Source: Escherichia phage PBECO4. Taken from it: a stretch of DNA of 64,000 nt. Location of the stretch: the sequence record KC295538; one strand, written 5' to 3'. Under the pieces are notes generated by a model, which saw only the letters and a list, made by a program, of their open reading frames with translations, was not told the origin of the DNA and made no database searches. Every line of letters begins with the position of its first letter. Position 1 is the first letter of the stretch. This document shows, one piece after another, positions 832 through 18,471 of the stretch. A program made the translations under genes and the position numbers.

Positions 832-860
832 ATAATACTGCTATTATTCAGTACTGTCAA
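832..860 (-). promoter_or_regulatory. sigma70-like promoter TTGACA-N17-TATTAT (CAGTACTG overlaps -35)
   Basis: minus-strand reading ttgacagtactgaataatagcagtattat; upstream of ORF 429..737. Confidence 0.45.
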
Positions 861-1150
861 TCGATATAAGTACCTTTTTTAACATCACAGACTTCTTCCA
901 TCCAATGTGGATTTTCGTTTTTATCAGTGAAGATTTGTTCTGCTTCTTCTTTTGTTTCAGCTAGGACAATACGATCCCCTTCATCCAAATCACGGATACG
1001 ATACACTTTCAGTTCTTGTTTCTTCTCAAGAATATTACACAGTTCACGTGCTTTTTCTTCATCGCACTTCCCTTCATTAGCATAAAACCAAATTGCTTTT
1101 TTAATAAGGTCACGTTCTTCTTTAGAAAAAGACATAATATTTCCTATCAT
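857..1150 (-). CDS. hypothetical protein
   Basis: 97-aa ORF; consensus promoter upstream at 1181-1208. Confidence 0.5.
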   Translation of the reverse strand: MIGNIMSFSKEERDLIKKAIWFYANEGKCDEEKARELCNILEKKQELKVYRIRDLDEGDRIVLAETKEEAEQIFTDKNENPHWMEEVCDVKKGTYID

Positions 1151-1180
1151 TTGTTAAAGTGGATTTCGTTTGATATAAAC

Positions 1181-1208
1181 ATTATACAGTACTGATATCT
1201 TATGTCAA
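1181..1208 (-). promoter_or_regulatory. sigma70-consensus promoter TTGACA-N16-TATAAT with CAGTACTG abutting -10
   Basis: minus-strand reading ttgacataagatatcagtactgtataat. Confidence 0.55.
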
Positions 1209-1304
1209 GTATTAATCACCAAAAATCATCAGATACCCAAACCAACCCACACAGACGACTAAGCTAACAATACCAAAGACAATCTCTAAAGTCATGTTGT
1301 ATCC

Positions 1305-1523
1305 TTAATCAATGATTTTATATTCACGATGACCATAGAATCCAGCCTCAAGGATGCGATTGCCATCAGCATCTTCCAAGTCCCAACCACGGGATGTTTC
1401 GGCAATAATAGTCATGATGTGACCTCTTGGGAAAATCCCACTCAGAGTGGATACATCCTCAAGTAATTGAACTTTCTTTCCAACATTGGAATTCGGTTTA
1501 AACATTTTATGGCCCTTATTCAT
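1305..1523 (-). CDS. hypothetical protein
   Basis: 72-aa ORF. Confidence 0.4.
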   Translation of the reverse strand: MNKGHKMFKPNSNVGKKVQLLEDVSTLSGIFPRGHIMTIIAETSRGWDLEDADGNRILEAGFYGHREYKIID

Positions 1524-1698
1524 TGATCACATCAAGTACTTTATCCAGCTTTTTACCAATGCTTTCCTTTGGTTTCTCACCATTCTGGAATACATCAGAA
1601 CTGCAATACTCAGGACGCGTATTAGGAAACTTCTCGTTCATCCAGGAGTGACCGTAAACACCCAGCATGATGCCAACGATAAGAATGATAATTTGCAT
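1516..1698 (-). CDS. small membrane protein
   Basis: 60-aa ORF with N-terminal hydrophobic helix (IIILIVGIMLGVY). Confidence 0.35.
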   Translation of the reverse strand: MQIIILIVGIMLGVYGHSWMNEKFPNTRPEYCSSDVFQNGEKPKESIGKKLDKVLDVINE

Positions 1699-1713
1699 GA
1701 TAATTTCCTCTGA

Positions 1714-2502
1714 TTAAATGTTAGTAGTATAGTACTTGATTTCGTTTTGAATTGCAAGTTCTATTTGTTTATTGAAAAGAATTCCAAACTCTTTGATTGA
1801 TTCACAATCGAATTCAATAGAAAAAGTATACTCTGGTATACGTACATTGTCAATACCCAAATACTCTTTTATGTAAATTTTAATGAGTTCACATAGTGCA
1901 GTACTAAGACATTGAATTTCAAAATGTTTTGCACCTTTGTCAAAATACTTGAATGCATCAATATCACCTACAATAAAACTATTCTTTAATGTAGTGAATA
2001 GGTTCTCAGGAAACACGGTAATAGGTGACATTGATTTAAGAATGTATGTATCTTTGGCATTCTTAATGTACTCAATGAAGCAGTAGTTAACGTCAGGCTC
2101 GATTGAACGATCCGCGTTATGATACCAGTGTTTAAACTCACTGTATTCAGCAAACTTATGCTGGCGTAATGCGTTACAATCTTCACACAGTGCAGTCATG
2201 TTCTCTTTATCATTACCGCCCTGAAGACAGTCAAGTACATTATGGTCTAACGTCATGCGTACAAGGCGTTTCCCTTTAAGTACATAAGGTCTGAATTTAT
2301 AACGTTCTTTAGTACTGTGCTTATGTAAAGTGAATACCACATTGGATTCACCACAACAATCACATTTAAAGCCATCACGTGACATTACATGAATGAGTTT
2401 TCGAGTATTTGGACCAAACTCTGATTTGGTAATGTTACCTACAATTTCTGATGGTTTGTAGTATTTTGAATTCCGGCGAATCAATTCATCTATAGTGCTC
2501 AT
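1714..2502 (-). CDS. HNH-family endonuclease (possible homing endonuclease)
   Basis: 262-aa ORF; Cys cluster CDCCGES then HNH-like motif DHNVLDCLQGGNDKENMTALCEDCN. Confidence 0.6.
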   Translation of the reverse strand: MSTIDELIRRNSKYYKPSEIVGNITKSEFGPNTRKLIHVMSRDGFKCDCCGESNVVFTLHKHSTKERYKFRPYVLKGKRLVRMTLDHNVLDCLQGGNDKENMTALCEDCNALRQHKFAEYSEFKHWYHNADRSIEPDVNYCFIEYIKNAKDTYILKSMSPITVFPENLFTTLKNSFIVGDIDAFKYFDKGAKHFEIQCLSTALCELIKIYIKEYLGIDNVRIPEYTFSIEFDCESIKEFGILFNKQIELAIQNEIKYYTTNI

Positions 2503-2503
2503 T

Positions 2504-2734
2504 TTATATTATTCCTTCTTTGTTACAACCTATAATTATTTTTGTAACTTCGATAACTCGTACCAAATGATATCCGTGAAAAAAGTTAAAACCATACATT
2601 TGTGCTAATGCATCGGCTTCAGATTTTGCACGGATACATGATAGATATAATTCTCGTATATCACCATCTAATGATGCTTGTTTCTCGTCATTGATAACAA
2701 TAGCACGAATCTCAAAACGAACACCATAACTCAT
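2504..2734 (-). CDS. hypothetical protein
   Basis: 76-aa ORF. Confidence 0.4.
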   Translation of the reverse strand: MSYGVRFEIRAIVINDEKQASLDGDIRELYLSCIRAKSEADALAQMYGFNFFHGYHLVRVIEVTKIIIGCNKEGII

Positions 2735-2940
2735 TTAGTTTGACCCACAATAAGTTTCTCTTTAGTATTACTATTGTAACACCACATTTGTTCTTTACTA
2801 ACTGTAATCCAAATATCTTTGTTTACTTGTTCGTATGTACTATCACGTAATGCAATGCATTGATTCATGGAATTCATTGGGGTTATTTGTACACCGGAAT
2901 TAACAGAAAAAGCTATTACTAAAAAGATTACTGAATTCAT
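2731..2940 (-). CDS. hypothetical secreted/membrane protein
   Basis: 69-aa ORF; hydrophobic N-terminus. Confidence 0.4.
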   Translation of the reverse strand: MNSVIFLVIAFSVNSGVQITPMNSMNQCIALRDSTYEQVNKDIWITVSKEQMWCYNSNTKEKLIVGQTK

Positions 2941-17108: not shown

Positions 17109-17198
17109 TGGCAGTGAGTGTGGGATTCGAACCCACGATACGCTTTCGCATATGCTACCTTAGCAGGGTAGTGATTTCAACCACTCATCCAACTCACT
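17109..17198 (-). tRNA. tRNA-Ser (anticodon GCU), long variable arm; CCA encoded
   Basis: acceptor agtgagt/actcact, anticodon stem-loop ctacc-ctgctaa-ggtag, long variable arm, T-arm gtggg-ttcgaat-cccac. Confidence 0.7.
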
Positions 17199-17204
17199 AA
17201 ATTA

Positions 17205-17233
17205 ATTATATCAGTACTGAAAACTATTGTCCA
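17205..17233 (-). promoter_or_regulatory. sigma70-like promoter TGGACA-N17-TATAAT (candidate tRNA-cluster promoter)
   Basis: minus-strand reading tggacaatagttttcagtactgatataat, directly upstream of tRNA-Ser(GCU). Confidence 0.5.
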
Positions 17234-17242
17234 GTAGTATTT

Positions 17243-17602
17243 TCAGAAAAAAACCTTATTCAACACTTTAATTATCACAGAATTTAATTCATGTGGGAAC
17301 ACATTTTCATATACTGTGCGTTTCTGAAATTCATCTTCTTCATCAGCACTTAGCTGGAAGGTAATGTATTGAGCATTTATACTATTTATTATATCACGTA
17401 AAGTGTTATTTGTCCTTTTTATTTCTTCAAATGATTCAAAAACAATTACATCGTCATTTATAATAAATGATTCACCATATTCATTGAAAATGCGAATTCC
17501 AGGATTATCTTTACACCAGTTATTGGTATGGTCTGTTGTTAATTTTGAATTCAAAAATGATTTAAGAAACTCTTCATACTTTGAAATGTCTTTAACACTC
17601 AT
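17243..17602 (-). CDS. EExxFxQxST-motif family paralog
   Basis: C-terminal SADEEDEFQKRTVYENVF. Confidence 0.5.
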   Translation of the reverse strand: MSVKDISKYEEFLKSFLNSKLTTDHTNNWCKDNPGIRIFNEYGESFIINDDVIVFESFEEIKRTNNTLRDIINSINAQYITFQLSADEEDEFQKRTVYENVFPHELNSVIIKVLNKVFF

Positions 17603-17964
17603 ATCACCAACTTTAATTAAAAAAATGGATGGTGACGCTTTTAAACGCCGCTGTTAATTCAGCTTTATAACCACCCGTTTTAACTTACCTTTCGGCTACC
17701 TTGACGTGGGGCGTACAGGCTACTAAAAGCAACTTCTGTAAACATATTTCCACGCCTTACCCTTTTAAATAAAAGTCCATCCGGTTTTCCAGTTTGGTGA
17801 AGGACTTTCACCTCTAGTTTCAACCTGCTAGTCAAGTAATAATTGCCTATCGTCCAATTATCAAACCCGTCTAGGTTAACATTCACCACTTCCTAGAGTA
17901 CCAGAGATCTTGTTCTGGTTAGCATCGACGTAACTTACACCATATACGTCTGATTGTGGAATTC
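17603..17964 (-). ncRNA. candidate structured RNA or long 5' leader (alternative: 69-aa GTG-initiated ORF 17680..17889)
   Basis: GC-richer than flanks, directly downstream of consensus promoter 17965-17993; hairpin ggtgaa-agtcc-ttcacc; only ORF needs a GTG start with an RBS-like AGGAA abutting it. Confidence 0.3.
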
Positions 17965-17993
17965 ATTTTATCAGTACTGAACTATTTAGTCAA
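17965..17993 (-). promoter_or_regulatory. sigma70-like promoter TTGACT-N17-TAAAAT (23-nt repeat copy 1)
   Basis: minus-strand reading ttgactaaatagttcagtactgataaaat. Confidence 0.5.
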
Positions 17994-18035
17994 GTACTTT
18001 TTACAAATCTGGACGTTCATCTTTAAACATATTAA

Positions 18036-18063
18036 TATCCTCAGTACTGAATTATTTAGTCAA
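18036..18063 (-). repeat. 23-nt promoter-repeat copy 2 (poor -10)
   Basis: plus-strand cagtactgaattatttagtcaag; TTGACT present but no good -10 at 16-18 nt spacing. Confidence 0.45.
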
Positions 18064-18413
18064 GAATTAATTCGCATTTTTTTGAATTCACCAACCAAGT
18101 ACTTATAGAACTCATAAGTGAACAATGGTTCTTGTACAGTACTCATTTGAAAATATTCTTCTTCTGTCTTTGGTACAGGTGAAGTATATGAAATATAGGG
18201 ATTATAATCTTCTTCTACATAAGTAGAAACTTCAACATTAATTGAACTAAGATCTTTATGTAACAAAATGTTTAATATAACAGTTCGTTGGTCAGGAGTT
18301 TCTCCATTTTCCATCCACTGTAAACACAATCTCATCAGTTCATCCCAAATATAAAATTGGAAGTTGTAATCTTCAAGGTTGCGTTTTATTGCTTCTTCAT
18401 ATTCACTAAACAT
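18060..18413 (-). CDS. EExxFxQxST-motif family paralog
   Basis: C-terminal KTEEEYFQMSTVQEPLFTYEF. Confidence 0.55.
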   Translation of the reverse strand: MFSEYEEAIKRNLEDYNFQFYIWDELMRLCLQWMENGETPDQRTVILNILLHKDLSSINVEVSTYVEEDYNPYISYTSPVPKTEEEYFQMSTVQEPLFTYEFYKYLVGEFKKMRINS

Positions 18414-18443
18414 ATCAAGTTGCCATATAAGTTAAGATACAAA

Positions 18444-18471
18444 CATTATACAGTACTGAACTATTTAGTCA
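18444..18471 (-). promoter_or_regulatory. sigma70-consensus promoter TTGACT-N16-TATAAT (23-nt repeat copy 3)
   Basis: minus-strand reading ttgactaaatagttcagtactgtataat. Confidence 0.55.

Follow-up and report, generated by a model that had tools for sequence, protein, structure and literature searches.

AGTACT, an iterated palindrome of enterobacterial RaK2-like jumbo phages that recurs at fixed registers in promoters and throughout coding sequence

Several described systems share features with the palindrome AGTACT, which we studied in a 64,000-nucleotide stretch of the genome of Escherichia phage PBECO4 (sequence record KC295538; the whole of this stretch is referred to below as the window) and in related phages. 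With respect to genome-wide behaviour the closest analogue appears to be HIP1 (GCGATCGC) of cyanobacteria, which is likewise a short palindrome that exceeds expectation by an order of magnitude, occurs once per few hundred bases, lies in genes in all frames and is kept across relatives, and the function of which is unresolved. HIP1 reportedly correlates with cognate orphan methyltransferases. AGTACT resembles it in being at least tenfold in excess, within genes and in all frames; however, no cognate methyltransferase seems to accompany it, the phage enzymes apparently being of the CpG and Dam types, and its one-base variants do not display the skewed spectrum that repair drive leaves behind. 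Moreover, HIP1 is an 8-mer of cellular genomes, whereas AGTACT is a viral 6-mer that also occupies fixed promoter registers.

In its promoter positions AGTACT is reminiscent of the met-box of MetJ (AGACGTCT) and of the operators of P22 Arc and Mnt, which are dyad boxes of 6-8 bp placed singly or in phased multiples over the core promoter; such a dyad at a fixed register over the core promoter was found in the window and in phages fEgEco12 and CBB. The MetJ, Arc and Mnt systems comprise a handful of sites and known proteins, whereas AGTACT has more than 1000 sites and no ribbon-helix-helix protein emerged from Pfam scans. A possible functional analogue is TF1 of phage SPO1, an abundant phage DNA-binding protein that prefers phage DNA, has sites at early promoters and represses early transcription, discriminating through hydroxymethyluracil DNA and bending. 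The TF1 system, however, involves no iterated palindrome, and no HU-like protein was seen here. SlmA sites (GTGAGTACTCAC) are dispersed chromosomal palindromes with an AGTACT core that are read by a dimer, but the GTG-AGTACT-CAC flanks are not reproduced in the phage motif (the outer positions lack GT/AC), and E. coli has ~50 such sites as opposed to more than 1000. The pre-early arrays of T5-like phages offer a further likeness, consisting of a long terminal repeat of small genes with their own strong promoters for host RNA polymerase and a repeat-rich non-coding end, but no common palindromic box is known from T5 promoters, nor a genome-wide iterated palindrome from T5. The AGTACT motif is assignable to none of these systems. 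It is real, combines traits of an iterated palindrome and of an operator box, and is one for which we found no published report, and the main uncertainty about it is mechanistic. Full-text literature searches on the motif, on promoters of the RaK2 group and on iterated phage palindromes retrieved no description of it; the papers on RaK2, CBB, Sharanji and fEgEco12 do not mention it, and the promoter tables for CBB list different promoters.

The window is 92-99% identical at the DNA level to Asteriusvirus jumbo coliphages (121Q, slurp01, SHEFM2K and others) and shares two proteins with Escherichia phage IA-38 at 100% identity; its sequence places it within an enterobacterial RaK2-like jumbo phage (Asteriusvirus), a group with genomes of ~350 kb. 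The 8-mer CAGTACTG is present in 26 exact copies, compared with 0.58 ± 0.78 expected from dinucleotide-preserving shuffles (shuffle maximum 3). The copies start at positions 849, 1187, 8391, 14518, 14553, 15498, 16297, 16418, 16843, 17212, 17972, 18042, 18451, 20793, 20872, 27457, 29717, 29775, 33041, 33831, 35856, 36925, 36965, 41638, 44067 and 46003; nine of them are intergenic or at gene edges and 17 lie within open reading frames (ORFs), in all frames. The original prediction, which had been made from the sequence of this stretch, confined the palindrome to positions 832-18471; this range is too narrow, holding 13 of the 26 copies, the rest of which run to 46010. The real unit is the hexamer AGTACT, not a longer word, and CAGTACTG is its preferred form in Asteriusvirus. 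The 138 copies of the hexamer (16.6 ± 4.4 expected) range from position 238 to 62786 at a density of about one per 460 bp, with 3-15 per 4-kb bin, the structural-gene end included. ORFs hold 123 of these copies (58, 25 and 40 in the three frames, frame 0, in which AGT-ACT encodes Ser-Thr, being the commonest), while 15 are intergenic.

The flanks of AGTACT are symmetric: the -1 base is C in 43%, A in 27%, T in 20% and G in 9% of copies, with the complement at +1, and there is little further information beyond ±1. A longer motif in non-coding DNA was hinted at in the window, where 9 of the 15 intergenic copies are full 8-mers, but was not confirmed (26% versus 21%) in a 164-kb Asteriusvirus sample consisting of the window and two other 50-kb Asteriusvirus pieces (loci L002 and L003). 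The gaps between copies are close to exponential, and the sites are evenly spread along genes and almost randomly over early, replication and structural regions, which rules out regular spacing or a favoured position within genes. Pairs of copies 20-23 bp apart are nevertheless in excess (23 versus ~7 expected, by our own arithmetic from the gap data). A polar motif of the Chi or KOPS kind was ruled out, as AGTACT is palindromic and its flanks are symmetric.

Enrichment of the hexamer extends well beyond the window. The two further Asteriusvirus pieces contain 37 and 52 copies of CAGTACTG and 158 and 232 of AGTACT, and in the 164 kb as a whole AGTACT is found 528 times versus 46.5 expected, the next-best palindromic hexamer reaching 1.6-fold. 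The excess is 6-13-fold in loci of nine out of nine enterobacterial RaK2-like phages (121Q, SHEFM2K, TH47, IA-38, A4, RaK2, GAP32, CBB and Munch); in the loci of the eight other than SHEFM2K, AGTACT is the top palindromic hexamer at 5.9-13.4-fold, every other one being at most 2.4-fold enriched. The relatives concerned reach down to ~44% protein identity with the window phage (CBB, ~44%), and their hosts all belong to the Enterobacterales (Escherichia, Salmonella, Klebsiella, Cronobacter and Pectobacterium). The preferred -1 flank varies by genus, being C in Asteriusvirus and RaK2 and A in GAP32 and CBB. No enrichment was detected in T4 (7 copies versus 3.9 expected), in the related Vibrio phage 2.275.O (6 versus 5.3), in Xanthomonas phage XacN1 (0 versus 4.0), in Pseudomonas phage PA5oct (1 versus 7.8) or in the host comparison, a single 50-kb stretch of E. 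coli K-12 (3 versus 4.9), relative to which the density of AGTACT in the phage is ~35-fold higher.

Phage genomes usually lose short palindromes through restriction enzymes, and the genomes under study are no strangers to such loss. Among the 64 palindromic hexamers, 23 are absent from the 164 kb of Asteriusvirus DNA and 26 from the window; those missing from the 164 kb include CCATGG (0 versus 21 expected), TGGCCA (0 versus 18), GCATGC, GGTACC, CTGCAG and GGATCC. The tetramer GCGC is also absent, both from the 164 kb (0 versus 80 expected) and from the window (0 versus 27). GAP32 and CBB display a like pattern of avoidance. A single palindrome kept in ten- to twentyfold excess by genera that have less than half of their protein sequence in common must presumably be read by something important.

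The intragenic copies are not a by-product of the encoded proteins. After synonymous-codon shuffling, which leaves proteins unchanged, coding sequence retains 36.7 ± 5.2 copies of AGTACT (maximum 50), so that the observed 123 represent a 3.4-fold excess; shuffling of codon order predicts 20.8 ± 4.2. As both shuffles fall below the observed count, codon choice and, less so, protein sequence appear to have been bent to carry AGTACT, and codon or dipeptide bias was ruled out as the cause of its excess. Mismatch-repair drive, to which CCWGG owes its enrichment in E. coli, was also ruled out: eight of the nine classes of one-base neighbours of AGTACT are enriched 1.1-2.3-fold, and AGTATT, the deamination product, 1.3-fold. 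Because these neighbours are not depleted, repair or mutation drive is an unlikely origin.

Individual sites are conserved as well. Perfect conservation of the window AGTACT sites amounts to 62% in TH47 (82% DNA identity), 50% in A4 and 42% in RaK2, compared with 31-35%, 21-24% and 14-16%, respectively, for the background of all hexamers or of same-composition hexamers, and the comparisons span 18-30% DNA divergence. Gains of sites are about as frequent as losses. Single AGTACT sites are thus under purifying selection with turnover, being kept two to three times better than other hexamers.

With regard to promoters, the original prediction had singled out five sites bearing the palindrome. These have 0-2 mismatches in total to the sigma70 hexamers and spacers of 16-17 bp; all are on the minus (coding) strand, and they lie 37-112 nt upstream of ORF starts or abut tRNA-Ser. 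For 1181-1208, 17965-17993 (TTGACT-N17-TAAAAT) and 17205-17233 the hexamers, spacers and coordinates reported earlier are exact, and so are the coordinates of 832-860 and the overlap of its palindrome with the -35. The fifth promoter, TTGACT-N16-TATAAT, does exist, but its coordinates had been off by one base (18444-18471) and are 18445-18472. Near-consensus sigma70 hexamers, coding-strand location upstream of genes or tRNAs and a palindrome at fixed registers are what would be expected of promoters for host RNA polymerase, in agreement with the earlier proposal.

AGTACT was found in three registers, two of which, those abutting and overlapping the -35 element, go beyond the earlier description. 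The first, in which the hexamer ends one or two bases before the -10 element (box centre -16.5 or -17.5), is exemplified by the consensus promoter TTGACA-N16-TATAAT at 1181-1208, located upstream of ORF 857-1150, in which the palindrome (1187-1194) abuts the -10 and is centred at -16.5, and by the promoter at 18445-18472, upstream of ORF 18060-18413, with the palindrome at 18451-18458 in the same position. At 17205-17233 (TGGACA-N17-TATAAT) the palindrome (17212-17219) is followed by one base and then the -10 (TGn-TATAAT), placing the box centre at -17.5. In the second register AGTACT overlaps the -35 as TTGACAGTACT and is centred at about -27, as in the sigma70-like promoter TTGACA-N17-TATTAT at 832-860, where the palindrome (849-856) overlaps the -35 as TTGACAGTACTG with a centre at about -27.5; this arrangement is kept in 121Q. 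In the third register AGTACT abuts the 5' edge of the -35 as AGTACTTGAC, with its centre at about -37. The promoter at 17965-17998 has two boxes: AGTACT at 17993-17998 abuts the -35 TTGACT, and CAGTACTG at 17972-17979 ends one base before TAAAAT, so that the centres are at -37.5 and -17.5, 20 bp apart; the counterpart in 121Q has TATAAT as its -10. Weaker promoter-like sites, also on the minus strand, are TTGAAA-N16-TATTAT at 8681-8708, whose spacer contains AGTACT (8690-8695; box centre -18.5), and TTGTAA-N17-TATAAT at 11529-11562, where AGTACT (11557-11562; box centre -37.5) directly adjoins the -35 on its 5' side.

The promoter at 17205-17233 directly adjoins tRNA-Ser(GCU) (17109-17198) and is predicted to drive the tRNA-Ser/Met/Asn block (16949-17198), the position upstream of this block having been recognised before. 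Its -10 (17210-17205) predicts a start at 17197-17199, that is, at the first nucleotide of tRNA-Ser(GCU), and the primary transcript may lack the 5' leader that RNase P would otherwise take off. The window's palindromic promoters are all conserved in 121Q except this one, for which there is no orthologous match. The 23-nt repeat CAGTACTGAAyTATTTAGTCAAG is indeed present in three plus-strand copies, starting at 17972, 18042 and 18451; the copy at 18042 provides TTGACT and CAGTACTG on the minus strand (18042-18063) and has no consensus -10.

That the palindrome stands beside the -10 non-randomly is borne out by the 164-kb sample, in which 13 of the 115 copies of CAGTACTG are followed by a -10-like hexamer after 0 or 1 nt; the count is 1-3 at most other offsets and nowhere exceeds 6. 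An extended -10 (TGn) element was considered as an explanation and rejected: it fits only the promoters with a one-base gap (17205-17233 and 17965-17993), a minority, and the commoner form AGTACTG-TATAAT puts TG at -14/-13, not at -15/-14.

The same promoter architecture is far more developed in the terminal repeats of relatives. The 21-kb terminal repeat of fEgEco12 contains 56 small genes, mostly each behind its own promoter, and the 22.5-kb stretch that includes it has 138 copies of AGTACT versus 6.4 expected (21-fold). AGTACT is centred between -42 and -12 in 36 of its 51 sigma70-like promoters; the boxes fall at -36.5 (18), -26.5/-25.5 (four) and -16.5/-17.5 (19), in steps of 10 bp, where about 0.3 would be expected per offset. 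The terminal repeat of CBB, which belongs to another genus and infects Pectobacterium, has 143 copies versus 7.0 expected (20-fold); 26 of its 47 promoters carry boxes, 21 of these boxes being at -36.5 to -38.5 and 14 at -16.5, and thirteen promoters possess both, ~20-21 bp apart (expectation 0.29 per offset). The box-bearing share of sigma70-like promoters is thus 55-71% in the terminal repeats of CBB and fEgEco12, and the -16.5 box recurs with many different -35 and spacer sequences in the two genera. In a second sub-class of these terminal-repeat promoters (locus L015, 2100-9700; L003, 20000-27400), AAAnGCG is found directly upstream of TATAAT in place of AGTACTG; these usually keep AGTAC abutting the -35 (GTACTTGCAA).

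The palindrome also clusters at the genome end. SHEFM2K has a 2-kb non-coding stretch with 13 copies of CAGTACTG, which aligns with the place where the right terminal repeat of fEgEco12 has its inner boundary and therefore corresponds to the physical left genome end; the ends of the fEgEco12 genome have been verified experimentally (PMC13070987). The first 1,688 bp of fEgEco12 are non-coding and hold ten copies of CAGTACTG (17 of AGTACT), and three copies of CAGTACTG lie within ~110 bp outside the mapped genome terminus. At the physical left end of relatives the non-coding stretch measures 1.4-1.7 kb (L003, 28400-30400; L015, 1-1700; L018, 25925-27400) and holds other repeat families besides AGTACT, namely ATAGTTCCCCT, GGATGGCT and TAGACGGCTAAACGGCTAGA. 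The same kinds of repeat recur in Asteriusvirus and CBB, and a role as packaging or entry signals is possible.

Taken together, the symmetric word and flanks, DNA-level selection, conservation from genus to genus, the flank shift between genera, helical phasing and clustering at the genome end point to a symmetric reader of double-stranded DNA. The reading that we tentatively favour is that AGTACT boxes, maintained by selection throughout the genome, are bound by a sequence-specific DNA-reading factor of two-fold symmetry, most likely a small dimeric phage protein, which would act both in the control of early promoters and genome-wide. Each strong sigma70-type early promoter would bear one or two helically phased boxes (at about -37, -27 and -16.5) beside or over the -35 and -10 elements; box-bearing promoters would be concentrated in the long terminal repeat, with few in the window, the tRNA-operon promoter among them. 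Bound at these boxes, the factor would control the access of host RNA polymerase, with the dimer hindering, or at least touching, sigma region 4 and the spacer. Early transcription would most likely be shut off as the factor accumulates, negative control being the more natural direction because the hexamers are already near consensus. The original prediction had suggested an operator for a regulator, which is plausible in view of the same architecture in the relatives' terminal repeats; its restriction to promoter spacers does not hold, as ~90% of AGTACT copies are in coding sequence. Promoter control does not account for these intragenic copies, which number about a thousand in each genome. 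Embedded in genes via codon choice, they could serve organisation, protection or counter-silencing, and a box density ~35 times that of the sampled host DNA would concentrate the factor on phage DNA. We infer, then, that a protein reads AGTACT, that it is phage-encoded and that it represses.

A number of points weigh against this reading. The 6-bp core, with little information past ±1, is shorter than classical helix-turn-helix operators and fits an enzyme-type recognition site equally well. Relative to the centre of the -35 the boxes are displaced by about half a helical turn, which makes co-occupancy with RNA polymerase, and hence activation or anti-silencing, geometrically as possible as occlusion. 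Since all enriched phages infect Enterobacterales, the reader could be a host protein. The promoters of the terminal repeats are partly paralogous, and their counts therefore overstate the number of independent events. In addition, Pfam searches revealed no DNA-binding domain among the matches listed for 114 window proteins (best 25 of 40 matched families), among 76 small window proteins at E<=0.05, or among ten proteins encoded near the sigma-factor gene or behind palindromic promoters at E<=1, and for a small HTH_37 protein encoded beside the CBB sigma factor no homologue could be detected in the loci compared. A PHROGs scan likewise showed no regulator among the best 25 of 138 matched families.

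A bolder extension, which we regard as possible but rather doubtful, is that RaK2-like phages write a 'self' code, the palindrome at one per 170-460 bp, and that a dedicated reader tells phage from host DNA by its density and times early transcription via the phased boxes of the terminal repeat. Such a code, if true, would be the sequence-based counterpart of the base modifications with which T4 or SPO1 mark their own DNA. Discovery of the reader would expose how transcription is controlled during the first minutes in a 350-kb phage with 500-700 predicted genes, mostly of unknown function, and might reveal by what means, other than hypermodified bases, the phage sets apart or organises its own DNA. 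The two-box promoter class amounts to a testable map of early promoters for phages under therapy development, and the excess of AGTACT to a simple signature of the clade in metagenomes.

The host confinement just mentioned can also be turned into an explanation of its own, according to which AGTACT is read by a DNA-binding protein of the Enterobacterales that the phage sites recruit or titrate, for instance for early promoter control, interference with the nucleoid or division, or DNA entry. The Pseudomonas, Xanthomonas and Vibrio relatives are unenriched, the density is highest in the terminal repeat and in the non-coding stretch at the terminus, which presumably enter the cell first, ahead of any phage proteins, and no phage reader turned up in the Pfam scans. 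Yet the non-enterobacterial relatives are very distant, so that clade and host are confounded, and the genus-specific flank (C versus A) is easier to reconcile with co-evolving phage proteins. No E. coli factor is known to fit either: SlmA shares the AGTACT core and was ruled out by its flank, G at -1 being the most depleted base (9%), and the consensus boxes of LexA, TrpR and ArgR are mismatched in their flanks or half-site arrangement. A host reader is therefore unlikely in our estimation. We consider it distinctly unlikely that AGTACT is instead a site of DNA methylation, of the highly-iterated-palindrome or Type II kind, whose methylation state would switch early promoters and tag phage DNA, even though AGTACT, a 6-bp palindrome whose flanks are weak, looks like a typical Type II methyltransferase site, HIP1 sets a precedent for an iterated palindrome tied to methyltransferases and the phages encode several methyltransferases. 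AGTACT is also the ScaI site, and the retention of more than 1000 such sites where other restriction sites have been purged suggests some form of protection. The C5 cytosine DNA methyltransferase gene of the window (29340-30200, minus strand; PF00145, 7.5e-38), which itself contains two copies of CAGTACTG, encodes an enzyme with a short recognition domain that, among solved structures, is best matched by Dnmt3 catalytic domains; the second Asteriusvirus enzyme is a Dam methyltransferase (PF05869), and AGTACT includes neither CpG nor GATC. The Dnmt3-like character of the enzyme is consistent with the CpG methylation revealed by bisulfite sequencing in RaK2, which has only two methyltransferases and DNA with Dam/Dcm/CpG/EcoKI-type restriction behaviour (PMC3622015). 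In a phi92-like phage whose C5 enzyme is 51% identical, AGTACT is missing altogether (0 versus 11.5 expected), and the undepleted one-base neighbours, AGTATT included, make an origin by repair drive unlikely. On these grounds the window enzyme was rejected as reader or writer of AGTACT, and a methyltransferase link appears to be largely excluded.

A nearly random genome-wide spread combined with clustering at the physical genome end would also suit a cis site for a DNA transaction, be it by topoisomerase II, terminase or end-processing, recombination or replication initiation; the phage encodes a topoisomerase II, and a GTAC centre with symmetric flanks suits a cut with a 4-bp stagger. This we judge improbable, given that T4, PA5oct and the Vibrio relative possess orthologous topoisomerase II and replication genes and show no enrichment, that packaging, whether headful or by terminal repeats, requires a single site rather than a thousand, and that the sharp promoter registers conserved between genera would be left unexplained. 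The positional peaks beside the -10 and -35 hexamers could be taken to mean that the palindrome is solely a spacer element of early promoters, its other copies being incidental, a strict version of the original prediction. This is very improbable: 53 of the 61 sigma70-like coding-strand sites in the window have no AGTACT (eight carry it), 123 of the 138 copies of AGTACT and 17 of the 26 of CAGTACTG lie in ORFs, in all frames and away from promoter hexamers, and the intragenic copies exceed the codon-usage prediction 3.4-fold, are conserved above background and are enriched in late and structural regions too. Scarcely credible, finally, is an absence of function, with the excess stemming from codon or dipeptide usage, mutation bias or repeat amplification. 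Some copies do lie in repeats (the 23-nt repeat and the paralogous promoters of the terminal repeats) and frame 0 is the most used, but the observed number is far above both codon-usage-preserving shuffles, the neighbours are undepleted, sites are kept two to three times better than same-composition hexamers across 18-30% DNA divergence, and the same single hexamer is enriched in genera at ~44% protein identity from which other palindromes have been purged.

Some further occurrences of the palindrome in the window deserve description. Two perfect 14-bp palindromes, ATTCAGTACTGAAT, are located 121 bp apart at 16294-16307 and 16415-16428, between ORF 16448-16663 and tRNA-Thr, upstream of the tRNA-Thr promoter; the first falls within a plus-strand ORF of 63 aa (16197-16388), and both are kept in 121Q. 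Another pair, of CAGTACTG, is spaced by 35 bp (14518-14560), one copy, with the other upstream of it, being in the loop of a predicted terminator-like hairpin (14480-14560) which, as read from the sequence, has the stem GATAGCTTCTA...TAGAAGCTATC followed by a T run. The CBB supplement contains one terminator in which the stem itself is AGTACTGG...CCAGTACT.

Downstream of the two-box promoter at 17965-17998 there are ~350 nt (17603-17965, minus strand) in which the sole reading frame is a GTG-initiated ORF of 69 aa (17680-17889). This stretch ends in a G+C hairpin with U7 and has a folding energy of -95.2 kcal/mol (z = -2.55 versus shuffles), making it a candidate phage non-coding RNA. It has no match in Rfam even at E <= 1, and the Rfam matches in the window are confined to tRNAs.

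The base composition of the window is 33% G+C, and nearly all of its genes are on the minus strand. It has six tRNA genes, and the encoded proteins include a sigma70-family factor, the C5 cytosine methyltransferase, topoisomerase II, IF3, RNase H, DHFR and virion proteins. Elsewhere in Asteriusvirus, positions 35291-49853 of locus L003 are taken up by a tandem array of ~14 paralogous plus-strand genes annotated as 'regulator of chromosome condensation' (RCC1-like), in a genome that is otherwise minus-strand.

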